In this document: positions 4,167-60,047 of the stretch, piece after piece
How the letters are laid out: every line of letters starts with the position of its first letter
Position numbering within the stretch: the first letter of the stretch is position 1
Source: Patescibacteria group bacterium
Lineage (GTDB): Bacteria; Patescibacteriota; Minisyncoccia; Phycocordibacterales; JAKFXT01
Direction of reading: 5' to 3'
DNA: 64,000 nt
Assembly (NCBI GenBank): GCA_021731245.1
Contig: JAKFXT010000002.1
Coordinates: 24,164 to 88,163 of the forward strand
Translations under genes and position numbers: made by a program
Notes under the pieces: generated by a model
Database searches by the model: none
The model's input: the letters and a program-made list of their open reading frames with translations, nothing else
What the model was told of the DNA's origin: nothing

Positions 4167-4190
4167 GTATTTTGGGCACTTTTTATTGTA

Positions 4191-4331
4191 TGGATCCCGT
4201 AGTAGAAAATGGCATTAGAGGAAGGCGGGGGATACAAAATATTACAATGGAGTCGAATATTAAAAGCAGAATTAATTTGAGTGGTCATATTGCTCTATAA
4301 AAGAGCGATGCCATTTTTCACTACCGGATGG
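4191..4331 (+). repeat. Copy 1 of a ~140-bp inverted-repeat-flanked element. Its last bases form the atpB start codon.
   Basis: Left arm TGGATCCCGTAGTAGAAAATGGCATTAGAG and right arm CTATAAAAGAGCGATGCCATTTTTCACTACCGGATGG form a ~28-bp imperfect inverted repeat. The element ends ...CACTACCGGATGG with the ATG at 4328. Confidence 0.85.
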
Positions 4332-5369: not shown

Positions 5370-5401
5370 TTAAGTAAAATAGTCAGATTAAAAAATAAAA
5401 A

Positions 5402-5541
5402 TGGAATCCTGTAGTAGAAAATGGCATTAGAGAGAAAGTGAAAATATAAAAAATTATGTTAAAGTCGAATATTAGTAATTTAATTAAAATAAACTGGTAA
5501 CAGCTCTCTAAAGAGCGATGCCATTTTTCACTACGGGATGG
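5402..5541 (+). repeat. Copy 2 of the inverted-repeat element. It ends on the atpF start codon.
   Basis: Same terminal arms as copy 1 (…GTAGTAGAAAATGGCATTAGAG … AAAGAGCGATGCCATTTTTCACTACGGGATGG). Its internal ~60 bp are nearly identical to copy 3. Confidence 0.85.
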
Positions 5542-5985: not shown

Positions 5986-6369
5986 ATGAATAAATATCTT
6001 TTAGCTGATGCTCTAATAATGAAAGGAAAGGAATCCGCGAGCTCACTCGAGCATTTCCTCACTAAGTTGAATTCTTATTTGAAGGAAACACATAGAGAGA
6101 AACTTCTTAAAGATACACTCCTACTTTTAAAGTCAAAAAGAATTAAGTCACAAAATAATGCCAAAATTCTAAGCTCTAAAGAACTTACTGAAAAAGAAAT
6201 AAAAAATATAAAAGAAAAGCACGAAGATATTTTAAAAGAAAAGAATTTGATTTACGAAATAGATAAAGATTTAATCGGAGGGTACAGAATTGAGACGATA
6301 AACACTAGAGTGGACACCACATATAAAAGAGAACTCAGTGATTTGTACCAGCTTATGAGTAAAGAGTAA
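5986..6369 (+). CDS. atpH: F0F1 ATP synthase subunit delta (OSCP), unusually short at 127 aa
   Basis: Position between atpF and atpA. C-terminal motif ...LIGGYRIETINTRVDTTYKRELSDL resembles the delta C-terminal domain. The N-terminal domain appears reduced. Confidence 0.6.
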   Translation: MNKYLLADALIMKGKESASSLEHFLTKLNSYLKETHREKLLKDTLLLLKSKRIKSQNNAKILSSKELTEKEIKNIKEKHEDILKEKNLIYEIDKDLIGGYRIETINTRVDTTYKRELSDLYQLMSKE

Positions 6370-6374
6370 AAATA

Positions 6375-6513
6375 TGGATCCCGTAGTAGAAAATGGCATT
6401 AGAGAATGGTAGAAAATATAAAATATTATGATAAGGTCAAACATTAGTAATTTAATTAAAATAAACTGGTAACTTGCTCCAAAAGAGCGATGCCATTTTT
6501 CACTACAGGATGG
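6375..6513 (+). repeat. Copy 3 of the inverted-repeat element. It ends on the atpA start codon.
   Basis: TGGATCCCGTAGTAGAAAATGGCATTAGAG … AAAAGAGCGATGCCATTTTTCACTACAGGATGG, with the ATG at 6510. Confidence 0.85.
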
Positions 6514-12868: not shown

Positions 12869-12975
12869 GGAGGTGTCTCCTTGTGGCTGTCTTATGCCAA
12901 TAAAACATATAAAATATCTATAATCAAACTAGGAAAAATATTGTCATATTGCCTATAAACAAGTATATTTTCTTA

Positions 12976-15825
12976 ATGATTTCGTACGACCATAAGAAAA
13001 TTGAAAAAAAGTGGCAAGCTATTTGGGAAAAAACCAAAGCTTTTAAAGCTAAATTTCCTTCAAAAACAAAGAAATTTTATGGTCTTATAGAATTCCCGTA
13101 CCCATCAGGTGATGGACTCCACGTGGGGCATATTAGAAGTAATACCGCTATGGATATTATTTCTAGAAAGCGTCGTGCTGAAGGATATAACGTACTTTAC
13201 CCAATGGGCTGGGACGCCTTCGGACTTCCTACAGAAAACTATGCGATTAAGACGGGAATTCATCCTGCTATTGTCACGAAGCAAAATACAGACACATTCC
13301 GAAAACAATTAAAAAATTTAGGATTCTCTTTTGATTGGGATAGAGAAATAAATACAACGGACCCAAAATATTATAAATGGACACAGTGGATTTTCTTACA
13401 ATTATTTAAAAAAGGCTTAGCTTATAAAGCCACTATACCTATTAATTGGTGTTTGAACTGTAAAGTTGGTTTAGCGAACGAAGAGGTGGTAGACGGAAAA
13501 TGCGAAAGATGTGGGGGACCAACAGAAAAAAGAGACAAAGAACAGTGGATGCTTGCTATTACTAAGTATGCTGACCGATTGGATAAAGATTTGGATTCCG
13601 TTGATTATTTACCGCAAATAAAAACACAACAGAGAAATTGGATAGGGCGTTCTGTAGGGGCTGAAATTGAATTTAAAATAAAAGGGACTGATAGTAGTTT
13701 AAAAGTTTTTACTACAAGACCAGATACGCTTTTTGGTGCCACATATGTAGTAATTGCACCAGAGCATAAAATTATAGATACGCTTAAAAATAAAATTAAT
13801 AATGCTCTTGAAGTGGGTATGTATGTGCAACTTGCAGCCAATCAAAATGAGATGGAACGTCTTGCAGAAGGTAAGGAAAAAACAGGTGTAGAAATAAAAG
13901 GAATTAAAGCAATTAATCCTGCAAATGGAGAAGAGCTTCCTGTTTATGTAGCTGACTATGTTTTATCTACATATGGTACGGGGGCAATAATGGCAGTTCC
14001 AGCGCACGATGAGAGGGATTATGAATTCGCTAAGAAGCTTAGTTTGCCAATCAAAGAAGTTGTAATACCAAGCAGAATAGATAGAAATAATCCACCGCGT
14101 AAAGAAGGTAAAAAAACAGTAGAAAGGACCAATGTTCATGCCATTATTAGAAATCCAAAGAATGGAAATATTTTGTGTTTAAAATGGAAAAAACAACCGT
14201 GGATTACTTTTCCTATGGGTGGAGTTGAAAAGGGAGAGGATTTGGTGGAAGCGGCTAGACGTGAGGCACGAGAAGAAACCGGCTATACCAACTTAAAGTT
14301 GGTGAAAGTCATGGGAGGTCTTGTTAAAGCTGAATATTTTGCGACGCATAAAAATGAAAACAGAGTGTCTTGGACCAACGCCGTAATGTTTGATTTAAGT
14401 GATGAATTTCAAGAAGAAAGGAGCGAGGAAGAAAAAAATAATTATGACCTTGTTTGGTTTTCTAAAAATGAAATAACTTATCCAAAAATAGTCCACGCAG
14501 AACTCGATATATGGTTATCACGTTGGGATAAAGAAGATTTTACATATATAGAGGAGGGTGTACTTATAAATTCTGGAAAGTTTGATGGAATGGAAAGTGA
14601 AAAAGCTAAGTCAGAAATTACAAAATTTGTTAAAGGTAAAAAAGTTACTAAATTTAAACTCCGTGATTGGGTTTTTTCCCGTCAAAGATATTGGGGGGAG
14701 CCGATACCTGTAATTAATTGTAAGAAATGTGGGCTTGTTCCAGTGCCCGAAAAACAACTTCCTGTATTACTGCCTGATGTAAAAAATTATAAGCCAACTG
14801 ATAATGGAGAATCTCCACTTGCAAATATTAATTATTGGGTAAATGTGAATTGCCCAAAGTGTAAAGGTAAAGCAAAAAGAGAAACTGATGTTATGCCAAA
14901 CTGGGCCGGGTCCTCTTGGTACTTCCTTCGTTATACGGACTCAAAAAATAATAAGGAATTTGCCTCTAAAAAGGCGCTTAAATACTTCACGCCCATTGAT
15001 TGGTACAACGGAGGAATGGAACACACTACACTACATCTTCTTTATTCAAGATTTTGGCACAAGTTTTTGTTTGATTTGAAATTAGTGCCAACAAAGGAAC
15101 CTTATCAAAAAAGGACTTCACATGGACTTATTCTTGCAGAAGGAGGAGTTAAAATGAGCAAGTCAAAAGGGAACGTTATTAACCCAGACACAATAGTAGA
15201 AAATGTCGGGGCGGACACTCTTCGTTTGTATGAAATGTTTATGGGTCCATTTGATCAAGCTATTGCTTGGAATGAAGACAGTATGGTTGGATGCCGCAGG
15301 TTTATAGAAAGAGTTATAAAACTAAGTGAAAAAATTAAGAATATACCAAATAAAAATGGAGATGAAACACTTGAAGTCTTAATAAATCAAACTATAAAGA
15401 AGGTGACTGAAGATATTGAGAGTATGAAGTTTAATACTGCCGTGAGTGCCATGATGATACTCTGTAATGAATTTGAAAAAAGAGAATTTATTTCAAAAAA
15501 TGAATTTGAAGTGTTTATAAAAATACTTTCTCCATTTACACCGCACATAACAGAAGAGCTCTGGCAGAACATTGGCAATAAAGGAAGTGTCCATTCTGTA
15601 AAATGGTCCGTATTTAATAAAAATAAATTATTAAATGATGAAGTTAATATTTCAGTTTCGGTGAACGGTAAAAGTAGGGGAATCGTAAAAGCAAAAAATG
15701 ATGCCACGGAAGAAGATGTTATACGTTTAGCAAAGAAGAATTCTGAAATAGAGAAGTGGATTAAAGAGTATGAGAAAGTTATATACGTTAAGGGTAAAAT
15801 TATAAATTTCGTAACAGGTAAATAA
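12976..15825 (+). CDS. leuS: Leucyl-tRNA synthetase with a Nudix hydrolase domain inserted after the editing-domain HDxRD motif. An alternative start exists at 12949.
   Basis: HIGH motif (HVGH), KMSKS, two Cys4 zinc knuckles, the TTRPDT editing motif and AHDERDYEFA. A ~160-aa insert (14065-14550) carries a perfect Nudix box, GGVEKGEDLVEAARREAREETGY. Confidence 0.9.
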   Translation: MISYDHKKIEKKWQAIWEKTKAFKAKFPSKTKKFYGLIEFPYPSGDGLHVGHIRSNTAMDIISRKRRAEGYNVLYPMGWDAFGLPTENYAIKTGIHPAIVTKQNTDTFRKQLKNLGFSFDWDREINTTDPKYYKWTQWIFLQLFKKGLAYKATIPINWCLNCKVGLANEEVVDGKCERCGGPTEKRDKEQWMLAITKYADRLDKDLDSVDYLPQIKTQQRNWIGRSVGAEIEFKIKGTDSSLKVFTTRPDTLFGATYVVIAPEHKIIDTLKNKINNALEVGMYVQLAANQNEMERLAEGKEKTGVEIKGIKAINPANGEELPVYVADYVLSTYGTGAIMAVPAHDERDYEFAKKLSLPIKEVVIPSRIDRNNPPRKEGKKTVERTNVHAIIRNPKNGNILCLKWKKQPWITFPMGGVEKGEDLVEAARREAREETGYTNLKLVKVMGGLVKAEYFATHKNENRVSWTNAVMFDLSDEFQEERSEEEKNNYDLVWFSKNEITYPKIVHAELDIWLSRWDKEDFTYIEEGVLINSGKFDGMESEKAKSEITKFVKGKKVTKFKLRDWVFSRQRYWGEPIPVINCKKCGLVPVPEKQLPVLLPDVKNYKPTDNGESPLANINYWVNVNCPKCKGKAKRETDVMPNWAGSSWYFLRYTDSKNNKEFASKKALKYFTPIDWYNGGMEHTTLHLLYSRFWHKFLFDLKLVPTKEPYQKRTSHGLILAEGGVKMSKSKGNVINPDTIVENVGADTLRLYEMFMGPFDQAIAWNEDSMVGCRRFIERVIKLSEKIKNIPNKNGDETLEVLINQTIKKVTEDIESMKFNTAVSAMMILCNEFEKREFISKNEFEVFIKILSPFTPHITEELWQNIGNKGSVHSVKWSVFNKNKLLNDEVNISVSVNGKSRGIVKAKNDATEEDVIRLAKKNSEIEKWIKEYEKVIYVKGKIINFVTGK

Positions 15826-15963: not shown

Positions 15964-16046
15964 ATGTTGTGTAATTTGGTACCCTTGACGAAGAAAGGTT
16001 GAGGTGGTAGAAATAGGTCTGTTACGAGATTCTTTACTCCGTATTC

Positions 16047-17078
16047 ATGTCTATCAAACTTACATTTAAACCAAAACAAGTAGTCAAAAGGCTTTTGTCA
16101 GCCCTTCCTCCACGTGCCTCCGACGTGGTTGTTAATCGTTATGGTCTTGGAAAAACACCAGAAAGAATGACACTTGAAGCTATTGGAAAGAACTACAAAA
16201 TCACCAGAGAAAGAGTTCGTCAGATTGAGAATTACTCTTTTGGTGTTATAAGGAAATCTCCACTTTATAATAAAGAAAAAGCTATTTTTGATGAGTTACA
16301 AACAGTGGTGGATGAGATGGGCAATGTCGTTTCGGAACATCATCTTTTGAAAAATATTTCTGAAGATTTGAGTACGCAAAATAATATACACTTTCTACTA
16401 GTGTTGGGAGATGCTTTCAAGAAAAGAAAAGAGGATGAACATTTTAATCACCGCTGGTTTGTGGATGATTCTTTGGCTAATAAAGTTGAAACGGCTTTGA
16501 AGAAACTTTATGAGACACTTGAAGATGAGGCTATTATACCGGAGTCAGAAATGATCTCTACATTTTTAGATAGTTTGAAAGAAATTTCAGAAAAATACAG
16601 AAACGATGAAATAGCCAAAAGATGGCTAGGTTTGTCTAAAAAAATTGGACATAATCCACTTGGAGAATGGGGCATCTCTCATTCTTCAAATATAAAAGCT
16701 AAGGGTATGCGTGACTTCGCCTATCTTTCTATTCGTCGTCACGGATCCCCAATGCACTTTACTGAAGTTGCCAAGTCTATAAAACAGCTTTTTGATCGTG
16801 AGGCTCATGTTGCAACATGCCATAACGAACTTATAAAGGATAAGAGGTTTGTTTTGGTTGGACGTGGGCTTTATGCGCTTTCTGAATGGGGCTACTCATC
16901 TGGTGTTGTAAAAGATGTTATTCGCGAAATAATAAAGAAATATGGGCCACTTAGTAAACAAGAGGTGGTAGATAAAGTTTTGAAAGAAAGATATGTAAAG
17001 GAAAATACTATTGCCGTGAACTTACAAAACCCAAAGTTTTTCAAAAAGAATAAAGAGGGTAAGTATAGTATTGTTTAA
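16047..17078 (+). CDS. Sigma-70 region-4-like HTH protein with a C-terminal winged-helix-like domain. Putative transcription factor.
   Basis: The N-terminus (TLEAIGKNYKITRERVRQIE) matches the sigma70 region 4.2 helix-turn-helix signature. Promoter TTGACG-N17-TAGAAA lies upstream at ~15990. Confidence 0.5.
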   Translation: MSIKLTFKPKQVVKRLLSALPPRASDVVVNRYGLGKTPERMTLEAIGKNYKITRERVRQIENYSFGVIRKSPLYNKEKAIFDELQTVVDEMGNVVSEHHLLKNISEDLSTQNNIHFLLVLGDAFKKRKEDEHFNHRWFVDDSLANKVETALKKLYETLEDEAIIPESEMISTFLDSLKEISEKYRNDEIAKRWLGLSKKIGHNPLGEWGISHSSNIKAKGMRDFAYLSIRRHGSPMHFTEVAKSIKQLFDREAHVATCHNELIKDKRFVLVGRGLYALSEWGYSSGVVKDVIREIIKKYGPLSKQEVVDKVLKERYVKENTIAVNLQNPKFFKKNKEGKYSIV

Positions 17079-51921: not shown

Positions 51922-52179
51922 TTACTCCTTCCATGAAAAGGTTTCTCCTTCCTCAATGCCAGCGAACTTGGATTCTTTGACTTCGACCTTGAACTCGCCG
52001 TTCTGGTCCTTCTCGTAGACATAGACCAGCACCGTTCCTTTCGGTGTGATGGGGGTGTCGAGGTTTCCGTATTTTATGACGAGATTTATTTCCAGTTTTT
52101 CCCCCGTTTGGATGACAGTAGCCCCGTACAGACCGCTTTCGAGGTCAGACGATGGCTTAAGCAGGGAAATATCGGGCAT
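51922..52179 (-). CDS. Hypothetical 85-aa protein
   Basis: AAAGGA SD, GC-rich codon usage, and its own terminator. Confidence 0.45.
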   Translation of the reverse strand: MPDISLLKPSSDLESGLYGATVIQTGEKLEINLVIKYGNLDTPITPKGTVLVYVYEKDQNGEFKVEVKESKFAGIEEGETFSWKE

Positions 52180-52248
52180 ATAATGTCCTTTGCAGAGGGT
52201 CAGAATTGACTAATTTGCACATTATCTTGTTTTACAAAAAGTGTCTAT

Positions 52249-52278
52249 TCATTACCCTTTGACCAAATAAGGAGTCGA
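52249..52278 (+). promoter_or_regulatory. Candidate promoter for the 52330 gene. It is embedded in a repeated 17-mer.
   Basis: TTGACC-N18-TAATGT. The -35 lies inside TTACCCTTTGACCAAAT (52242-52258). Confidence 0.4.
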
Positions 52279-52329
52279 GAGTAATGTATTTTTAGGCAGT
52301 TCAACTAATTCCGACAGGAGGATTCCGCA

Positions 52330-52740
52330 ATGGCTGCAATGAAAGCTCCAAAAAACAAACCTTTCGCAACCAAAGCGAAAGTCCTTTTCTATGATGGATT
52401 GAGAGTCTTTGCCACCGAAGTGCCACACGGCCTCAAAGTGGTTTTCTGGCCGATTGAGAGTCAGCGTCATTACAAAAATACGCCCGCAACGATGGGGAGA
52501 TTGATTCTCTTGACCAATGCTCCTCGCGAAAGTCACGTGCTGCTCGAAGTGGATGGCGTTCCAAGAAAAGAATGTGGGCGCATGATGCGAATTCTTGGCT
52601 TTTGCTTCATCAGCGGAGACCACCGCGAAGGACATTTCTTGTCCTCTCGCAAAATGTCGAGAAACCATCGCAGTCACGATTCTCGCAACAAACTCATCAA
52701 CCAGTGGGTCAAAGGAGAAATCGACACCTGCTCACGTTAA
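52330..52740 (+). CDS. Hypothetical 136-aa protein
   Basis: Strong RBS ACAGGAGGattccgcaATG and a clean downstream terminator. The overlapping antisense ORF lacks both. Confidence 0.5.
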   Translation: MAAMKAPKNKPFATKAKVLFYDGLRVFATEVPHGLKVVFWPIESQRHYKNTPATMGRLILLTNAPRESHVLLEVDGVPRKECGRMMRILGFCFISGDHREGHFLSSRKMSRNHRSHDSRNKLINQWVKGEIDTCSR

Positions 52741-52745
52741 AATTC

Positions 52746-52790
52746 AACCGCTTCACAGGAAACCTGGGAGCGGTTTTCTGTTTTTATAAT
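52746..52790 (+). terminator. Rho-independent terminator
   Basis: AACCGCT-tcacaggaaacctggg-AGCGGTT followed by ttctgttttt. Confidence 0.6.
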
Positions 52791-52798
52791 TGAAAAAA

Positions 52799-52966
52799 TT
52801 ATTCAGGTTTCTTTTTATAAACTTCGTAAGCTGAATAAAGAACGAGCCAGACACAAAATATATAGAGCCAAGTATCATCTTTGCCGTTTACCCACCAAGC
52901 GATTACAAGAAAAGCAAAGACCCCGATGAAGACGAACATCATTCCGTATTTCTTTAAGATATCCAT
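52799..52966 (-). CDS. Possible 55-aa two-helix membrane peptide (MDILKKYGMMFVFIGVFAFLVIAWW...)
   Basis: An ATG-initiated ORF below the track threshold. Hydrophobic, found by manual translation. Confidence 0.3.
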   Translation of the reverse strand: MDILKKYGMMFVFIGVFAFLVIAWWVNGKDDTWLYIFCVWLVLYSAYEVYKKKPE

Positions 52967-53001
52967 AATATTTCAATTGTTACAGATGGATTATTTGTTT
53001 T

Positions 53002-53205
53002 TTATGAACTACCATCACCACCGCCACTGCCGCCATCACCAGTAGAGCCTCCGTCAGTACTTTCAGAGCCATTTGCTCCATCTGCTTCAGAGCCTGACTC
53101 TTCAGAATCATCTGAGGGAAAGACGGGAGCAGTATAGGCGCCTCCATCTCCACTATCCTTATTAGGTTTCTTAGGTCCAAACATTTTTTTGAATATTTCA
53201 AACAT
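53002..53205 (-). CDS. Hypothetical small acidic Gly/Ser/Asp-rich protein (67 aa)
   Basis: Low-complexity acidic tail (DGGSTGDGGSGGGDGSS). Preceded on the minus strand by a ~290-nt GC-rich leader. Confidence 0.35.
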   Translation of the reverse strand: MFEIFKKMFGPKKPNKDSGDGGAYTAPVFPSDDSEESGSEADGANGSESTDGGSTGDGGSGGGDGSS

Positions 53206-53284
53206 ATAACTAATTATATCAGGCTTTGTATCTTACCTCCTTGACCAAATAAAAAAAGCCGCACCCAATTTATTTTTATTATAA

Positions 53285-53490
53285 ATTCTGGGGTACGGCT
53301 GGTATTGCGAGCCAACAAACGAGCTGACATCGAGAGTGTTTCGAGCAAAACAACGAGAAGAACAACGAGTCGCGAATGACCCCCGAGGAACCACGACGCG
53401 CATCAGACCTTGAAAGAACTTGGGGACGGCCGTCCCTTTCGAACTCCCAGAAGACCTGTTGGCCTAGCGTCAACCGTAACCCCTCGGAGG
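53285..53490 (-). ncRNA. Candidate structured GC-rich non-coding RNA or long 5' leader. Family unknown.
   Basis: Upstream minus-strand promoter TTGACA-N18-TATTTT (plus coordinates 53497-53526). The ends pair (GGGGTTACGG with CCGTACCCC). Internal hairpins include GGGACGG/CCGTCCC. No convincing ORF. Confidence 0.3.
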
Positions 53491-53551
53491 TATATAGAAA
53501 ATAACAATTAGATGACTTTCTGTCAATTCACCCTCGAAAAAGGAGATTGTC

Positions 53552-54037
53552 TCACAAAATAGAAAAAGTAAGTGTCATTGGAGAATGGAAAGGTGTGGCA
53601 CTCCATTGCCCCTTTAACTTACGAAAACATTCTTGCGTCATTCTAATAGATTCCTCAATAAGCCAAGGCGGCAATGGTTCATGATAACTATTATATAAAT
53701 TATTAAAGCTCTCCATCGCTTCAATGGGAGTAATTAAATCTTTCATTACAGCCGTTAGTACTCCTACGACTCGCTCGGTATTTACGATCTCAGAATCTCG
53801 CAGTGGGTCTGAGCTACCTAGCCCAGAAGAAAGCTCAGCGTAAGATTTTCCTGATGCCAATAATCCAAAGAACGAATATTTAAGGCCCACCTGTGTTTCA
53901 AGTGCATAATGAATCAAGTCATGCTCAAGGGTGCTCTTCGTCTCATTTTTTACTATATCCCAGTCTCCATCTCCTTTTCTATATTCAAACATGTGATGGG
54001 TCGGGGATATTCGGGTAAAACGGATCGTGAGAATCAT
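53552..54037 (-). CDS. Hypothetical 161-aa protein
   Basis: ORF in the island with no recognised motif. Confidence 0.45.
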   Translation of the reverse strand: MILTIRFTRISPTHHMFEYRKGDGDWDIVKNETKSTLEHDLIHYALETQVGLKYSFFGLLASGKSYAELSSGLGSSDPLRDSEIVNTERVVGVLTAVMKDLITPIEAMESFNNLYNSYHEPLPPWLIEESIRMTQECFRKLKGQWSATPFHSPMTLTFSIL

Positions 54038-54129
54038 TCACTTATTTTATCAAATTATGTAGAACCTTGAAAAAGGAAAGAAAAGTGATAGAAATAAAGG
54101 TAGACCACCTCACAGGAGGGAGATAACAC

Positions 54130-54225
54130 ATGGAAGACCACGGTGATACGATTCCGCCAGTCGGCTCTTATCAGACGATTGCCTTCGCGGTTTGCCACCC
54201 AGTAAAATTCGTACAGTCGCTCTAG
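54130..54225 (+). CDS. Possible 31-aa peptide (MEDHGDTIPPVGSYQTIAFAVCHPVKFVQSL)
   Basis: Strong RBS CAGGAGGGagataacacATG. Upstream TTGAAA-N17-AGAAAT at ~54066. A downstream plus-strand terminator at 54268-54296. Confidence 0.3.
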   Translation: MEDHGDTIPPVGSYQTIAFAVCHPVKFVQSL

Positions 54226-54267
54226 AGAATGTTTACCGAAGCGGCTGGCTGGCAATAGCCCACCTTT

Positions 54268-54296
54268 TTCTCAACCCCCCGCTTCGGCGGGGTTTT
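54268..54296 (+). terminator. Rho-independent terminator (plus strand)
   Basis: CCCCCCGC-ttcg-GCGGGG followed by ttttttc. Confidence 0.6.
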
Positions 54297-54370
54297 TTCT
54301 TTACCCTTTGACCAAATGGGGGATTAGGTGGCAAAAGATATAAAACAGGATGATGTGCGGAAAGAAAAAA

Positions 54371-54676
54371 TTACCTCTTCTTCGGTTTTGGTTTCTCAGG
54401 TCCTTTCTTGTCAGAATCTCCAATATCTTGTATCGGAGACATTAACGGTTCATTCGAAAGCCGAGCGTCAAATTTTTGTCCAGTTTTCGCTTCGATTTCT
54501 TCTACTTGTTTTAAAAGCAATCTTCCTATTTGTTTGGCGGTGGCTAAGTGGAAAAGAAACGTATATTTCTCTGTCCCTGACCTCAACCAGAACTGAAGTA
54601 AGCCATTCACAGCCTGAGCTTTAGCTTCGTCGACAAAAATCTTTTCAGGGCCATTTGTAAATATAGGGTCTTCCAT
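54371..54676 (-). CDS. Hypothetical 101-aa protein with a basic C-terminal tail. Apparently leaderless.
   Basis: Near-consensus promoter TTGACA-N16-TAGAAT whose -10 ends ~7 nt before the ATG. No SD. Confidence 0.5.
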   Translation of the reverse strand: MEDPIFTNGPEKIFVDEAKAQAVNGLLQFWLRSGTEKYTFLFHLATAKQIGRLLLKQVEEIEAKTGQKFDARLSNEPLMSPIQDIGDSDKKGPEKPKPKKR

Positions 54677-54682
54677 ACAAAC

Positions 54683-54710
54683 ATTCTATTACTGTGAATA
54701 ATAGTGTCAA
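54683..54710 (-). promoter_or_regulatory. Near-consensus sigma70 promoter (TTGACA-N16-TAGAAT) for 54371..54676
   Basis: Plus-strand tgtcaa at 54705-54710 and attcta at 54683-54688. Part of a repeated 25-nt module that also occurs at 53521-53545. Confidence 0.45.
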
Positions 54711-54750
54711 TTACCCTTGAAAAAGGAGCTGAGGGGAGTAGGATGGGGGA

Positions 54751-55503
54751 ATGGAAACTTTTATTAAGTGGTGGCCCAGAGTAATCGCTTTCATTTCAGG
54801 TTACATTTTGGGTTCATATATTATGGATTTTTGGTTAACTCGTGTATTGAAAATACCTACTACACTTGGAGATTGGGCATACATAGCAGAAATCATTACT
54901 GGGTTCTCAATAATTATTGCAATAATTGAGTATTACTCTCACCAAGAAAAAGATAAAAAAATTGCTGTTGCTGACCAAGTTCACATGCTACGAACCGAGG
55001 TGATTGATGGATATGAAAAAGCTTTCAGGTCAATAATTCCTGCTTTAAAGATAAAAATGTTAGTTTTTCCTAGACCAATACCTATTGTGGAAGAATTTAG
55101 TTACTCTTGGGTTATTGAAAATTATGAGGATATAACACAAGAGCAAAACTTTATTCTCAGAGAACTAATGAAAAACGATATTTATTGGGGACATAAAGAA
55201 ATTAACAGTTATTTAAATGTATTAGAGGAATTAGCAATTCGTATAAAAATAACCGGAACTGTAAATGACCCAACTTTGGGTGCCATAAAACAAACTTTTG
55301 TAAGTAGCGTTGAATTATTTTTAATAAAAATTTTAGAAATGATATCAAATAATGATTCTTATTATCGCAACATAAGGTGGCTTTATTCAAAGTGGTATAA
55401 AGACGAAGATGTTGACCGAAGCCTACTAGAAGTTAGACAGAAAAAAATTAATGACAGTATTGAGGATGGGGTTCGTAAAAAAAGAGAAAAACTATCTAAA
55501 TAA
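54751..55503 (+). CDS. Hypothetical protein with two N-terminal TM helices and a ~190-aa cytoplasmic domain
   Basis: AT-rich ORF at the island's right edge. No motif recognised. Confidence 0.45.
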   Translation: METFIKWWPRVIAFISGYILGSYIMDFWLTRVLKIPTTLGDWAYIAEIITGFSIIIAIIEYYSHQEKDKKIAVADQVHMLRTEVIDGYEKAFRSIIPALKIKMLVFPRPIPIVEEFSYSWVIENYEDITQEQNFILRELMKNDIYWGHKEINSYLNVLEELAIRIKITGTVNDPTLGAIKQTFVSSVELFLIKILEMISNNDSYYRNIRWLYSKWYKDEDVDRSLLEVRQKKINDSIEDGVRKKREKLSK

Positions 55504-55751
55504 GGTTTCTAACTTTTTTTTAATGAACGTGTGTTATGCCAAAGAAGATATGCCAAGCCATTTTTATAGTTACTTTTTCATATAAAAATAGGGAAGTGAC
55601 TCCCCCGATTTTATAAGAAATTTTTTAAAGAATTTATTTTGTAATTAATTCAAGTAGATTGTGCGATAGGAAAGTGATCTACGTTATCTTTTACGAATGT
55701 CGGACTTTGATTACTATTGCTTTTGCGACATTCGAGTTATAATTAGTAGAT

Positions 55752-56426
55752 ATGACCCTTCGTACACAAAAGACTGGGACCCAATCACCTTGGACGACAG
55801 AAGAACTTAAAAGTGGTTTATTACATTTTCATAAAGAAAATGGTCATTATCCAACTTCAACAGAAATTGATAACTATCAATATTTACCTTCAGCAAGAAC
55901 AATTGAAAGAAGTCACGGTGGGCTCGTTGAATTGAGGAAAAAATTAGGCCTTGGCGATGAACATGACTACAGATTAGGCTCTCACAGCTCAAAACGAGCT
56001 CATACCATCAATACCAGAGCTCACAAAACAGAAGATATTGTCTACCAATTTTTAATTGAAAAGTTTGGCAAAGAATTTGTGCATCGTGAATACTTTTTTA
56101 CTGATGATCACCGTACAAGAGCTGATTTCTTCGTCTACGATGAAGGAAAGGGCTTCTGTGTAGATGTATTCTACCCAAACTCAACAAGAAACCTCACAGG
56201 ATGCCTCAATATAAAGTTAAATAAATATAATAAAGAATACATGGGCTTTGTCCCATATCCAGTCATTTTCCTACAAATGAATGAGAGTATAGACGATGAT
56301 TCATTAAATAAACTCCTGAAAAATAAAAAGCGCCAATTATTAAGTAATCAATACCTAATGGGTTGGGAAGCATTCAAAGAATTCACTAAATCTAGAAAAG
56401 CTTTGTCTGTTAGAAGAACCAAATAA
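55752..56426 (+). CDS. Hypothetical protein, possibly endonuclease-like (Vsr/PD-(D/E)xK-like core)
   Basis: RADFFVYDEGKGFCVDVFYP resembles the ...DF.....VDG..WH... core of Vsr/DUF559-type endonucleases. The N-terminal W..EEL......G..P helix is HTH-like. Weak. Confidence 0.35.
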   Translation: MTLRTQKTGTQSPWTTEELKSGLLHFHKENGHYPTSTEIDNYQYLPSARTIERSHGGLVELRKKLGLGDEHDYRLGSHSSKRAHTINTRAHKTEDIVYQFLIEKFGKEFVHREYFFTDDHRTRADFFVYDEGKGFCVDVFYPNSTRNLTGCLNIKLNKYNKEYMGFVPYPVIFLQMNESIDDDSLNKLLKNKKRQLLSNQYLMGWEAFKEFTKSRKALSVRRTK

Positions 56427-56655
56427 TATTAAAGGGGAGTATCGTTTTAATTAAACCCCACACCCCCTTTACTTCTATAGCTTATAGCTATGTCGCACAA
56501 GCTTCCCGCGTAAAAGATATATTGTGCGACGTTACCTCTATAGAGCCTTTGACCCATCAATACAACCTTAAAGACCCCTTCCCTTACTTAATATGTTTAT
56601 ATTGTTTTGGATTCCAGGCTGGCGTACAAGATATAAATATTTCCATATTCCCTTG

Positions 56656-56922: not shown

Positions 56923-57358
56923 AAATTTCTTTTCTTATTTTCATCCAAATTTTACCCATCATGTTTTCTCCTGAACCATTTTCTCCCGTACCCCAGAAAT
57001 AATCTTCTGGATGATTTTTCTCAATAATTTTATCAGCGGTCTTTATAAGCATTCTTTTGACATCGTCATGCTGTTCTAATTTTGCCTTCATAACCTTTTC
57101 CATGACAGAAACCTTATCAAAAGGTTCCTTGCGACCATTTTTACTTCCTCCATACTCTCTGGCAAGAAATGCGCTCGGAGCTTCTTTTATCTTCTTTCTT
57201 ATTTCAATATCAGAAAATTTGGAAACCTGATAGGCATGTTCTGATGTCATATACTCTTCCCCCTCGAATACTACTTTGTGCGCTGAGAAATTTGAAAGAA
57301 GATAGAATGGCCCTTCGTAAAATTTAATTTTATTATCATCAGTAGACTTACTCTCCAT
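56909..57358 (-). CDS. NADAR/YbiA-family (DUF1768) protein
   Basis: FYLLSNFSAHKVVFEGEEYMTSEHAYQVSKF... and the DYFWGTGENGSGENMMGKIWMKIR region match YbiA/NADAR. Confidence 0.7.
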   Translation of the reverse strand: MESKSTDDNKIKFYEGPFYLLSNFSAHKVVFEGEEYMTSEHAYQVSKFSDIEIRKKIKEAPSAFLAREYGGSKNGRKEPFDKVSVMEKVMKAKLEQHDDVKRMLIKTADKIIEKNHPEDYFWGTGENGSGENMMGKIWMKIRKEIYGNN

Positions 57359-57665
57359 ACATTTCTAATTTTATTTTTTGAAGCTCCTCAATTGTTTTTG
57401 AATCAGTAATTTTTGTAAATCTAGGAAAAGTTTTTCCATCTTTTTCTACCATACCCATCCACATATCTAATGGGCGCACAACATGTGTCGCCGGAGCTAA
57501 AAAATCATTTTCATAAAGAGGTCTGTATATGACGGTGTAATTTCGTTCTTCAGAATGAAGTGCGACTCCAACATATTCATAAGAATAGTTATTCATATCC
57601 CCTTTCGGGTCGTGTTTGTAATGATAATAGAATCCTTTTTCCGGAATTTTTTTAATTATCTCCAT
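57348..57665 (-). CDS. Small conserved protein, paralog 1 (resembles DUF1653 by recall)
   Basis: KGFYYHYKHDPKG...YRPLYE...VRPLDMWMG.VEKDGKTFPRF.KITD. About 60% identical to the adjacent gene. Confidence 0.45.
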   Translation of the reverse strand: MEIIKKIPEKGFYYHYKHDPKGDMNNYSYEYVGVALHSEERNYTVIYRPLYENDFLAPATHVVRPLDMWMGMVEKDGKTFPRFTKITDSKTIEELQKIKLEMYGE

Positions 57666-57990
57666 ACATTTCTTTTTTAGTTTTTTCCAATTCTTTTATA
57701 ATTTTTTCATCAGTAATCTTGGCAAATCTAGGAAATGTCTTCCCATCTTTTTCTACTATACCCATCCACATATCTAATGGACGAACATCATACATTTTAC
57801 CTGCCTTGTAAACTGCCGCCTCATATAATGGTCTATAAATTATCATATTCTCATCTTCCGGTCGGCAATCTTCTTCTGTGTGCACTCCTGCGCCAATATA
57901 TTCATAAGCGTAATTATTTACACTCCCCTTCGGGTCGTGTTTGTAATGATAATAAAATCCTTTTTCAGGAACTTTAGTAGGTATTTTCAT
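57652..57990 (-). CDS. Small conserved protein, paralog 2 (tandem duplicate)
   Basis: Same motif set as 57348..57665. The two genes overlap by 14 nt. Confidence 0.45.
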   Translation of the reverse strand: MKIPTKVPEKGFYYHYKHDPKGSVNNYAYEYIGAGVHTEEDCRPEDENMIIYRPLYEAAVYKAGKMYDVRPLDMWMGIVEKDGKTFPRFAKITDEKIIKELEKTKKEMYGDN

Positions 57991-58736: not shown

Positions 58737-59195
58737 CTATTTCTTATTAAGAGCCAACTTTGCTTCAGTTTTTAACTTAGCTATTTTTGGTCCCCAACAA
58801 GGCTTTGAGGCACTCCATGGTTGTAAGCCTTCTCTCTCATAGAGATATCTAGCGTATGCCATATTGCCTTTCAAGTCATAGATGTCGTAACCAAGTTCTT
58901 CTGAGTCTACCTGATGGTAGTGCTCATTAACCTGCATAACACCTACGTCCTTACTATTAACCACACCGCGAATCGTATTACCTTCACTATCCGCTTGGCG
59001 GAAACGTGACTCACAATACGCTACTTGAATCATCTCTGGGATGTCTTCAAAGTATGAACGAACTTCTTTTTCAACGAAAATGTATTTCTTATTCTCCTTG
59101 CGGGAACTTTCCGTTATTAGCACTTCCTCCTGTTTAGGAGTTGGTACTTGTTCGTTTACCGGTTGATTATCATTATTGTTAATGTTCGAGATCAA
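58737..59195 (-). CDS. Transglycosylase-like (lysozyme-like) domain protein. Start codon uncertain (TTG in the track, no in-frame ATG).
   Basis: VAYCESRFRQ...GVMQVNEHYH resembles Rpf/SLT-like transglycosylase domains (CES...G..Q.N..W). The in-frame upstream region encodes a hydrophobic stretch without an ATG. Confidence 0.45.
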   Translation of the reverse strand: MISNINNNDNQPVNEQVPTPKQEEVLITESSRKENKKYIFVEKEVRSYFEDIPEMIQVAYCESRFRQADSEGNTIRGVVNSKDVGVMQVNEHYHQVDSEELGYDIYDLKGNMAYARYLYEREGLQPWSASKPCWGPKIAKLKTEAKLALNKK

Positions 59196-59579
59196 AAAAA
59201 GTATTCCTGTTGCTAACCCGATAATAGTCGTATTTTAGCTCCTAATGTCGTCTAGGGATTTCCTTTTGACACAGGTTTTGTGCCAAACATTCGCCCCTAA
59301 ATGAAAAAACCAGATGTTATCTGATTTCTTTTATACTATCATATTTTTATTCTTCTGTCAATACTTCCCAATAAATTCACCATTTGGTCAATGGATAATA
59401 AATGGCTATAAATATAGCTATTTTTCCATTTTTCATCTCACAATAGGTTATGACTTTTTTCAAACCTTACCAAGGACGGGCTGCCAAGAGCCCATCTTCA
59501 ATCCCCTATCCCCACTTATGCTTCCTTATTACCCCCCAATTTGCGATAATCTAGTCATTAAAAATTTTTAAACTATATT

Positions 59580-60047
59580 ATGTTGAATAAACTAATGGGT
59601 TGTCAGTGGTGTTCAGATGCTTGGCAAGATGCGGGCAAGCTTGTGCTACGTGTTGTGCTCGGTGCGGTTTTGTTTATGCACGGCTATCAGAAAGTCGTCA
59701 CAGTAGGAGTTGATCAAGTTACAGCTGGGCTCTTTGGAGCAGGTGCTCTAAATTGGCCAATGCCATCACTTTGGGCCTACTTGGTAAGCTATGGTGAATT
59801 AATCGCTGGAGCACTTCTTATTGTCGGATTATTCACTCACTGGGCGGCTAAAATTGGTGTTGTGATTGCCACAGTCGCCCTTTTTTCAGTACATATAAAA
59901 AATGGTTTCTTCTTAGGAACTGGAGGATATGAATACATACTCCTTATTCTTGCAGCATCTGTCGCTATAATGACTACAAGTTCTGGAAAATATTCAGTAG
60001 ACACTTGGTGTAAAAACAGAAACTCTTCAATGGGAGGAGGAATGTAA
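59580..60047 (+). CDS. DoxX-family membrane protein
   Basis: Four TM helices with the DoxX-like LRVVLGAVLFMHGYQKV... pattern. Confidence 0.65.
   Translation: MLNKLMGCQWCSDAWQDAGKLVLRVVLGAVLFMHGYQKVVTVGVDQVTAGLFGAGALNWPMPSLWAYLVSYGELIAGALLIVGLFTHWAAKIGVVIATVALFSVHIKNGFFLGTGGYEYILLILAASVAIMTTSSGKYSVDTWCKNRNSSMGGGM

Follow-up and report, generated by a model that had tools for sequence, protein, structure and literature searches.

The short motifs that recur in the window, a 64,000-nt stretch of a Patescibacteria chromosome, are mostly ordinary σ70-type promoter cores. They are probably −35-centred cores of housekeeping (σ70/σA-type) promoters that were locally copied or homogenised within a hypervariable segment. 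This segment, previously described as an island, is rich in lineage-specific ORFan genes. The anatomy of the motifs, their conservation in relatives and their excess over chance were observed directly and are set out below. The initial annotation had matched the motifs to −35 elements, and this held for most instances, three of which are backed by conservation in a relative; the boxes at 53232, 54301 and 56549 lack a −10.

Anatomy of the repeated boxes

Module 1 is the 17-mer TTACCCTTTGACCAAAT, the core of which, TTGACCAAAT, has four occurrences, all intergenic. Copy 1 is exact and was located at 52252-52268 (+), 10 nt from the position first given (52242-52258). It contains the −35 (TTGACC, 52259-52264) of the gene B promoter, TTGACC-17-TAATGT. 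The −10 at 52282-52287 (+) was read from the sequence and aligned with TAATCT in the syntenic relative L244, and gene B (52330-52740) has an AGGAGG ribosome-binding site. Copy 3, the other exact 17-mer, was found where it had been placed, at 54301-54317 (+). It is an orphan box directly after a terminator (54277-54292) and is directed into the 3' end of gene F, with GCAAAA in place of a −10 at 16-18 nt and a TATAAA 25 nt away.

Copy 2, CTTACCTCCTTGACCAAAT, was confirmed at 53232-53250 (+). This orphan box also has no −10 at 16-18 nt, the hexamer 17 nt downstream being CCCAAT. It is situated between a minus-strand terminator (53259-53300) and the −10 of gene D (53002-53205), and overlaps positions of about −29 to −47 of the opposite-strand gene D promoter. 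The extended −10 of gene D, TGaTATAAT (53213-53221, −), stands 7 nt ahead of the ATG, a distance suggestive of a leaderless mRNA. A weak relative of the 17-mer, AGCCTTTGACCCATCAA, had been reported at ~56545 and was located at 56544-56560 (+), with TTGACC at 56549-56554, in a convergent intergenic region and without a −10. The boxes at 53232, 54301 and 56549 are directed at the 3' ends of minus-strand units and are antisense to them. These three are not promoters as they stand, leaving two or three copies without an attached promoter. Their location at 3' ends or insertion junctions would make them relics or the sites of some binding factor.

Copy 4, TTATCCATTGACCAAAT at 59382-59398 (−), was missed initially and is outside the range first given for the repeats. 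It starts exactly 30 nt upstream of the gene N −35. The main gene N promoter, TTGACA-17-TGaTAGTAT (59333-59361, −), is kept in 13 of the 16 relatives examined, and the copy 4 box is conserved in L293 (as TTAGCCATTGACCAAAC), L244, L250, L247, L265 and L246. Both elements are conserved among relatives with N proteins merely 40-80% identical. Copy 4 is thus a conserved second TTGAC box and not the −35 itself.

The duplication reported for a 25-nt module was recovered at 53521-53545 (module 2a, TGTCAATTCACCCTCGAAAAAGGAG), with a 24-nt twin at 54705-54728 (module 2b, TGTCAATTACCCTTGAAAAAGGAG). The two differ by one indel and one mismatch and share 23 identical positions. The similarity spans the −35 and upstream region and leaves out the spacer and −10, which is not the pattern expected from simple duplication of a whole promoter. 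Module 2a provides a minus-strand −35 (TTGACA, 53521-53526) in the arrangement TTGACA-17-TGtTATTTT, with the −10 at 53498-53503; on the plus strand its other half is degenerate, with TCGAAA separated by 20 nt from TAGAAA. The minus-strand promoter precedes a putative non-coding transcript of ~240 nt (53252-53492, −) that ends at a hairpin and U-run (53300-53259). No convincing ORF and no Rfam match were found for this unit, which has a predicted fold of −82.9 kcal/mol on the minus strand (z −2.6; plus strand z −0.5).

Module 2b was the back-to-back core between genes F (−) and G (+). On the minus strand, TTGACA (54705-54710) is followed after 16 nt by TAGAAT (54683-54688) and after a further 6 nt by the F ATG at 54676. 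On the plus strand, TTGAAA (54717-54722) is followed after 16 nt by TAGGAT (54739-54744) and after 6 nt by the G ATG at 54751. Both gene starts agree with database proteins of 101 and 250 aa. Both copies of module 2 carry the minus-strand TTGACA given in the initial annotation, but the CCCTTGAAAAAGG half of the module is a plus-strand −35 (TTGAAA), and module 2b is therefore a bidirectional core and not just a minus-strand −35 with an upstream element. As in known bidirectional promoters, the two −35s are on opposite strands, 6 nt apart (TGTCAA-TTACCC-TTGAAA), each with its own −10 and gene; unlike them, the 25-nt core is duplicated as module 2a, where one half alone looks functional.

The shorter relative, ACCTTGAAAAAGGAAAG, lies at 54064-54080 (+), one nucleotide from its first assignment (54063), and is also a plus-strand TTGAAA box. 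Its −35 (54067-54072; box CCTTGAAAAAGG) is followed after 16 nt by TGaTAGAAA at 54086-54094, ahead of a small ORF (54130-54225). The complement, TTTTCA (54068-54073), is the −35 of leaderless gene E, with a −10 of TAAAAT at 54044-54049. The connection drawn to a host promoter at ~15990 also holds. There, ACCCTTGACG (15981-15990) begins a plus-strand promoter, ACCC-TTGACG (15985-15990)-17-TGgTAGAAA (16008-16013), spanning 15981-16013 before the Sigma70_r4/HARE-HTH gene 16047-17078. The arrangement ACCCTTGACG-17-TGgTAGAAA is conserved in L296, and the promoter is kept as AACCCTTGACG-17-TGGTAGAAA in L296 and L298. The C-rich flank (ACCC) before the −35 recurs among the boxes and is conserved at this host promoter.

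Conservation and comparison with known promoters

Three boxes are kept at orthologous positions in L244: those of the B promoter, the small-ORF promoter and the upstream TTGAC box before gene N. The B and small-ORF promoters are conserved with their −10 elements. At the B promoter, L244 retains TTGACCAAATAA-N11-TAATCT-ATTTTTAG, where the window has TAATGT; the TTACCCT flank of copy 1 is not kept. Before the orthologous small ORF, CCTTTGAAAAAAGG-...-TGATACAAA is retained despite the absence of gene E from L244. No within-genome repeat comparable to that of the window was found in L244.

A σ70/σA-type promoter consists of a −35 (TTGACA), a 17±1 nt spacer and a −10 (TATAAT), with an optional TGn extended −10. 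The motifs agree with this class in their hexamers, spacing and TG extension and in lying ahead of gene starts, and −35 and −10 are conserved jointly in orthologous promoters. Unlike in typical members, the stretch conserved within the genome takes in 7 nt on the upstream side of the −35 and 4 nt on its downstream side, the flank ahead of the −35 is rich in C, and three copies have no −10. The extent of the identity counts against the promoter reading: it continues far past the −35 hexamer, is 17/17 between two loci and ends abruptly on both sides. This similarity exceeds the known contacts of σ region 4. The three boxes that lack a −10, the loss of the TTACCCT flank in L244 and the lack of a comparable repeat there count against it as well.

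The upstream part, suggested to be an UP element or activator site, does not resemble an UP element. Such elements consist of A/T-rich sequence between −40 and −60, whereas the flank here is C-rich (ACCC) or a second TTGAC hexamer. The boxes do share with UP elements and class I activator sites a conserved sequence ahead of the −35, and copy 4 is ~30 bp upstream, near −64; no activator was identified for the boxes.

In leaderless-mRNA promoters of Actinobacteria, Deinococcus and archaea, the −10 is ~6-8 nt before the start codon. In the window, genes D, E, F, G and H likewise carry TAnnnT 6-8 nt ahead of the ATG and lack a Shine-Dalgarno sequence, as do many host genes, and relatives show the same arrangement; all are candidates by sequence. 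In the same region, gene B and the small ORF differ in having classical AGGAG ribosome-binding sites. The −35 of candidate leaderless promoters in 21 related loci is mostly TTGAAA or TTGAGA, TTGAAA being the commonest.

Alternative origins of the repeats

The identity beyond the −35 could instead mark TTAYCC-N1-2-TTGACCAAAT as the operator of a sequence-specific DNA-binding regulator, for example the σ-region-4-like HTH protein 16047-17078. Binding would repress or activate B and D (site near −35) and modulate N (near −64), and the boxes would resemble a −35 because the protein reads a −35-like sequence. The 15-17 nt conserved within the genome have sharp edges on both sides, and three copies have no −10 and so would not be simply promoters. 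Copy 4 keeps a constant 30-bp phase relative to the complete promoter downstream of it, in a layout that is conserved in relatives and typical of class I activator sites. The flank of copy 1 has changed from an L244-like TTATAA to TTACCCT and is now identical to that of copy 3. The window encodes a Sigma70_r4 and HARE-HTH protein whose own promoter bears ACCCTTGAC. We nevertheless consider an operator unlikely. No regulator gene was recognisable within the variable segment, and the structure model of gene B was unusable (pLDDT 44.7). The motif is asymmetric, with no dyad or direct-repeat structure, and its TTAYCC part is not conserved at the orthologous sites of L244 or L293. No more than four sites are known, within 7 kb, and only its domain type ties the σ4-like protein to them.

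Less probable still, and in our view doubtful, is that the boxes are recombination junctions, copies left behind at cassette borders where cassettes were inserted or exchanged by microhomology or a site-specific enzyme, with the −35 likeness incidental. The window and L244 stop being homologous exactly at copy 3 (54302); homology starts again at copy 1, or just before it, and at the TTGAAAAA box (54067). A second TTGAAAAAA at 52790 is on the left edge of a 1.3-kb window-specific segment; the flanking repeats are, however, short and imperfect. Each unit in 52.2-56.6 kb has a plus-oriented box on its left regardless of gene orientation, a bias that is partly ascertainment because the plus strand was the one scanned initially. 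Gene H has a weak match to a homing-endonuclease-associated repeat (E 0.057), but no integrase, transposase or recombinase was found in the region. As in integron cassette arrays, the array is variable and has short repeats separating small genes that are promoter-poor or foreign; here there are no R''/R' core sites or imperfect-palindrome hairpins, and each gene is supplied with a promoter and terminator of its own. No hairpins form at the boxes, which are therefore not attC-like. Relatives that lack the insertions retain copy 1, the small-ORF box and copy 4 along with their −10 elements, and these boxes therefore predate the insertions as promoters.

The repeats exceeded chance in shuffle comparisons. 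With ≤2 mismatches allowed, the 17-mer had 3 matches against 0.05 expected (0/100 shuffles reached 3) and ACCCTYGAAAAAGGAG had 3 against 0.09; TTGACCAAAT had 4 against 0.32 (0/100 reached 4). These patterns were picked post hoc, after being seen, and the window is AT-rich, with 240 AT-rich 10-mers of ≥4 copies against ~133 in shuffles; a few unrelated exact 15-20-mers also recur. The case therefore also rests on location: every copy is intergenic and falls within 52.2-59.4 kb. The core first proposed as common to all motifs, (A)CCCTT(T)GA, is short and statistically weaker, CC ≤5 nt upstream of TTGA[CA]N occurring at 12/47 intergenic against 41/376 coding sites, a comparison confounded by the higher GC of the region. 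That the boxes are a few −35-like hexamers picked by eye from a locally GC-richer intergenic background is hardly credible, being largely refuted by the shuffles and the three boxes conserved in relatives; the 24/25-nt pair and the intergenic placement of every copy within 7 kb also speak against it.

Promoter style and gene gain

On the promoter-core reading, the lineage would favour a C-rich flank (ACCC or CC) directly upstream of a −35 of TTGAC(C/A) or TTGAAA, a 16-17 nt spacer that is often purine-rich (AAGGAG, AAGGAAAG), and a −10 of TAnnnT, often with an upstream TG and often no more than 6-8 nt ahead of the ATG, as leaderless mRNAs would suggest. We infer from these features where transcription starts, that mRNAs are leaderless and how the copies arose. 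Copy 1 would serve as the gene B −35, and the shorter relative as the −35 of the conserved small ORF and, on the opposite strand, of gene E. Module 2b would be a compact core that serves the leaderless genes F and G in both directions, and module 2a a second copy of which the minus-strand half alone is intact and may drive the non-coding RNA. Copy 4 would act as an auxiliary TTGAC box, placed three helical turns (30 bp) upstream of the N promoter. For copies 2 and 3 and the 56549 box, the likeliest reading is that they are remnants of promoters at insertion junctions or have an auxiliary role like that of copy 4.

Relatives lack genes A, C, D, E, F, G and H, which would therefore have needed new local promoters; homologs of gene E were found in unrelated bacteria in another genomic context. 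Small genes specific to the lineage, each equipped with a promoter and a terminator, may have been gained beside pre-existing promoter boxes, with local copying or homogenisation of promoter cores during gene gain. Repetition of the motifs would then follow from their place in a hypervariable segment, in which genes are gained beside such boxes.

Inventory and genomic setting of the repeated boxes

The 17-mer TTACCCTTTGACCAAAT (module 1) was present as two exact copies on the plus strand, as reported in the initial annotation; copy 3 lies at 54301-54317 as given there, and copy 1 lies at 52252-52268, its position having been placed 10 nt too low. The variant CTTACCTCCTTGACCAAAT (copy 2, 53232-53250, plus strand), AGCCTTTGACCCATCAA (56544-56560), the motif ACCCTTGACG of the promoter at 15985 (15981-15990) and the duplicated module 2 (25 nt at 53521-53545, module 2a, and a 24-nt twin at 54705-54728, module 2b) were likewise recovered. 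A shorter relative of module 2 was located at 54064-54080 by sequence search. A fourth copy of module 1, TTATCCATTGACCAAAT (copy 4, 59382-59398, minus strand), had been overlooked. Four occurrences of the 10-mer TTGACCAAAT were counted in the 64 kb, each of them intergenic and within 52.2-59.4 kb, and the remaining 57 kb of the window contains no motif copies. Spacings between the boxes are irregular (982, 1067 and 5074 nt).

Chance expectations were estimated from shuffles preserving dinucleotides. The 17-mer with up to two mismatches was observed 3 times with 0.05 expected, exact TTGACCAAAT 4 times with 0.32 expected and ACCCTYGAAAAAGGAG with up to two mismatches 3 times with 0.09 expected. 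All three patterns thus exceed shuffle expectation. The patterns were picked post hoc and many AT-rich 10-mers recur in this AT-rich window, as do some 15-20-mers by chance or paralogy, so the argument also draws on the intergenic clustering. The repeats are real.

The window is a piece of chromosome of a Patescibacteria (CPR) bacterium, one of its proteins being named Patescibacteria in the database source, and carries housekeeping genes, among them those for LeuRS, AlaRS, GltX, DnaK and L9 and an ATP synthase operon. LeuRS (12949-15825, plus strand) has a NUDIX domain inserted at residues 393-512, an architecture shared by the related loci L296 and L297. The ATP synthase operon contains a 100-140-nt element three times (4185-4330, 5397-5540 and 6369-6476 onward, plus strand; ∼80% identical), each copy preceding a gene (at 4328, 5538 and 6474). 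In its long closing stem GTAGTAGAAAATGGCAT pairs with ATGCCATTTTTCACTAC; the fold has a z of −1.6 and the element has no Rfam match.

GC content is ∼36% in the window and 41-43% at 50-55 kb. Small genes on both strands occupy 51.9-56.6 kb, namely genes A-H (A, 51922-52179, minus; B, 52330-52740, plus; E, 53552-54037, minus; F, 54371-54676, minus; G, 54751-55503, plus; H, 55752-56426, plus) and a 31-codon small ORF from 54130 (plus). Scans of the proteins of this segment with Pfam, PHROGs, NCBIfam and PADLOC returned no regulator, recombinase, phage or defence function, and no match other than a sub-threshold homing-endonuclease-associated repeat in H (E 0.057). The C-terminal half of H looks nuclease-like by eye, and H may be what is left of a mobile element in this variable segment.

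Syntenic contigs were obtained by a metagenome scan using the neighbouring M23 peptidase. The nearest relative, L244 (76% amino-acid identity), retains the flanking genes, B, the small ORF, the NADAR gene, gene N (58737-59195, minus strand) and DoxX, and lacks A, C, D, E, F, G, H and the cupin gene. Homologs of E were found in unrelated bacteria in a different context, adjoining a HIT-family gene. On these differences in gene content and the occurrence of E homologs elsewhere, the island is a hypervariable segment of lineage-specific and probably horizontally acquired genes. Homolog searches with B and F returned only B and F themselves, and the structure model of B was unusable (pLDDT 44.7). 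Exact-protein look-ups returned only short Logan contigs, which were identical to the window and therefore carried no polymorphism information. A scan for the degenerate 17-mer in viral_contigs and genome_contigs gave single, taxonomically scattered chance matches, none related to the window, and no comparable repeat family was present within L244. Rfam found no credible family in the whole window at the gathering threshold or in E-value mode at 51.8-56.8, 58.6-59.7 and 4.0-6.6 kb, and a literature search on the 10-mer or CPR promoters found nothing relevant. Downstream of the island, a DUF1653 gene is tandemly duplicated (57348-57990, minus strand; copies 78-81% identical in DNA) and is single-copy in L250. 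A 40-nt inverted match (73%) between the A/B intergenic region (52215-52254) and the DoxX 3' end (59991-60030) is probably due to chance.

Promoter anatomy and conservation

A hexamer was counted as −35-like if it agreed with TTGACA at 4 or more of its 6 positions. The boxes supply TTGACC five times, TTGACA twice and TTGAAA twice, and one degenerate hexamer, TCGAAA. A −10-like TAnnnT lies at 16-18 nt from copy 1, module 2a (minus strand), module 2b and the shorter relative (both strands of each) and in the promoters at 59361 and 15985; none lies at that distance from copies 2 and 3, the box at 56549 or copy 4 itself. Placement and orientation upstream of a transcription unit fit for B, F, G, E, the small ORF and a non-coding unit. 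At orthologous sites the −35 and −10 are kept for the B and small-ORF promoters (L244), the N promoter (13 of the 16 relatives examined) and the promoter at 15985 (L296); no orthologous sequence was available for modules 2a and 2b or copies 2 and 3.

Copy 1 provides TTGACC (52259-52264), a 17-nt spacer and TAATGT (52282-52287) on the plus strand, 43 nt upstream of B. The corresponding site of L244 has TTGACCAAATAA-N11-TAATCT-ATTTTTAG, so that copy 1 is, on comparative grounds, a predicted conserved promoter; its flank TTACCCT is not kept in L244, which reads TTA-TAA there. The shorter relative reads TTGAAA-16-TGaTAGAAA on the plus strand before the small ORF (L244 counterpart CCTTTGAAAAAAGG…TGATACAAA), and TTTTCA-18-TGaTAAAAT on the complement, 6 nt before the ATG of E. 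The small ORF itself (54130-54260, plus) is conserved as MEDHGDTIPPVG… with synonymous changes in L244 (12918-13103), where a TGG replaces the TAG stop of the window and the frame runs on to 61 codons; the product may be a small protein that is truncated or made by read-through.

Module 2b is a predicted promoter core facing outwards in both directions. On the minus strand TTGACA-16-TAGAAT lies 6 nt before the ATG of F, and on the plus strand TTGAAA-16-TAGGAT is at the same distance from the ATG of G; 6 nt separate the −35 hexamers. The starts of F and G are those of the deposited proteins. Module 2a carries TTGACA-17-TGtTATTTT on the minus strand, facing a 240-nt stretch without a credible ORF, and its plus half is the degenerate TCGAAA. 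That GC-rich stretch (53252-53492, minus strand) has its own promoter in module 2a and its own terminator, a hairpin followed by a U-run, and folds into a long hairpin, better than shuffles on the minus strand only (z −2.6; plus strand −0.5). It has no convincing ORF and no Rfam match, and L244 lacks it; we regard it as a candidate small RNA.

Copy 4 is not a −35 element. It is a second TTGAC box, and exactly 30 nt separate its start from the downstream −35 of the strong N promoter, TTGACA-17-TGaTAGTAT, and the box, its spacing and the promoter are kept in L293 (89% nucleotide identity), L244, L250, L265 and L246. The product of N is SLT/lysozyme-like. Its leader (59296-59361, minus strand) is conserved in L244, L293, L246, L247, L249, L250, L253, L255, L257, L263, L265, L271, L277 and L284: a 5-7-bp hairpin and a T-run come within 7-12 nt downstream of a strong extended −10 promoter, e.g. 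AATCAGATAACATCTGGTTTTTTC. The stem varies in sequence between clades with pairing preserved; the leader has no Rfam match and looks like a 5'-proximal attenuator. The N frame extends upstream of the listed TTG (58737-59260, minus strand) through the signal-peptide-like TTIIGLATGILFLIS to a TAA stop. This extension contains no ATG, GTG or TTG and is preceded directly by AGGAG, which suggests a non-canonical start (ATT or ACG); the arrangement is the same in L244 and L293.

Many genes of the window lack a Shine-Dalgarno sequence and show TAnnnT 6-8 nt ahead of the ATG, and candidate leaderless promoters in 21 related loci mostly have TTGAAA or TTGAGA as −35. The promoter at 15985, which precedes the Sigma70_r4/HARE-HTH gene, reads ACCCTTGACG-17-TGgTAGAAA, is kept in L296 including ACCC and resembles the small-ORF promoter in spacer composition and −10. 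TTGA[CA]N had a CC in the 5 nt preceding it about twice as often at intergenic as at coding sites. With this conserved promoter, the enrichment lends some support, at modest statistics, to the proposed common core (A)CCCTT(T)GA as a C-rich −35 extension. The anatomy of most boxes fits σ70-type, leaderless-mRNA and back-to-back bidirectional promoters. As an observation the initial annotation was largely correct; of its alternatives, extended promoter modules were mostly borne out by anatomy and conservation once strand and architecture had been corrected; an UP element was not. The α C-terminal domain contacts UP elements as A/T-rich tracts at −40 to −60, whereas the flank of module 1 and of plus-strand module 2 is the C-rich TTACCC(T). 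The T5 run of minus-strand module 2, at about −45 to −49, is a loose likeness only.

Origin of the repetition

We consider it reasonably probable, and the reading with the best support, that the boxes serve the housekeeping RNA polymerase as promoter cores, repeated through copying or homogenising as foreign genes were installed. Promoters in a cassette-like segment would have been copied or homogenised while incoming genes settled beside existing boxes. The three orphan boxes, those without an acceptable −10 at 16-18 nt, and the pattern of identity speak against promoters as the whole explanation and keep two rivals alive. The orphans (copies 2 and 3, and the box at 56549) each aim at a minus-strand unit, entering it at its 3' end. 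Copy 2 shares −29 to −47 with the extended −10 promoter that gene D has on the opposite strand, and copy 3 directly follows the small-ORF terminator, starting where homology between the window and L244 ends (54302). Within the genome the 17-mer is identical at 17/17 positions with sharp edges, the likeness of 2a and 2b spans the −35 and its upstream side and excludes the spacer and −10, and the copy 1 flank was altered only in the lineage of the window, becoming identical to that of copy 3.

The first rival, a dedicated DNA-binding factor reading the extended box, is unlikely overall and is best placed at the orphan copies. Only its domain type makes the σ4-like protein encoded at 16047-17078 a candidate, and profile scans found no HTH protein in the segment. 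The 17-mer is asymmetric, with neither the dyad nor the direct-repeat half-sites of a transcription-factor operator; only TTGnnCAA is weakly palindromic, and CCATT-N5-AATGG occurs in copy 4 only. A more specific form, which we regard as distinctly doubtful, makes the TTAYCC-N-TTGACCAAAT box and the extra TTGAC boxes docking sites for this conserved Sigma70_r4 + HARE-HTH protein, as a stand-alone σ-region-4-like DNA-binding protein of Patescibacteria. The protein would read the −35-like sequence independently of RNA polymerase, would occupy −35 elements, upstream sites in 30-bp phase and cassette borders, and would tune or insulate expression of newly gained genes.

The second rival, in which the boxes are junction sequences of cassette recombination, gains from breakpoints that fall at boxes; we hold it to be very unlikely, as no recombinase was found, the boxes lack hairpin potential and they are older than the insertions. 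Pure chance is scarcely credible.

Several other known elements were considered and rejected. DNA folds of all six modules were no better than shuffles (z −1.2 to +0.8), unlike integron attC sites, and Pfam, NCBIfam and PHROG scans found no integrase. Single-subunit (T7/T3-like) promoters are 23-nt conserved sequences, and module 2a matches the T3 promoter at ∼16/23 positions; no phage-type RNA polymerase is present, the chromosome is cellular and half of the copies would fire antisense. Iterons were rejected on the irregular spacings and missing Rep gene, DNA uptake sequences, which are over-represented across a genome, on the absence of copies from the other 57 kb of the window, and MITE ends on the lack of a partner inverted repeat and a transposase gene. 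Copy 4 resembles a DnaA box (TTATCCATT and TTATCCACA), but the CACA part is absent and the likeness is not common to the other copies.

Significance for CPR promoters

The boxes are a fresh example of an already known feature type, of value mainly since CPR promoters are uncharacterised; to our knowledge, almost nothing about them has been established experimentally. Binding of a factor by the orphan boxes would point to a σ4-like regulator class; otherwise the finding is one of ordinary promoter anatomy. The locus provides a small, comparatively supported set of CPR promoters with a C-rich flank and TTGAC/TTGAAA, frequent candidate leaderless starts and a compact bidirectional core, and shows how probably horizontally acquired ORFan genes get wired into expression in a hypervariable chromosomal segment.
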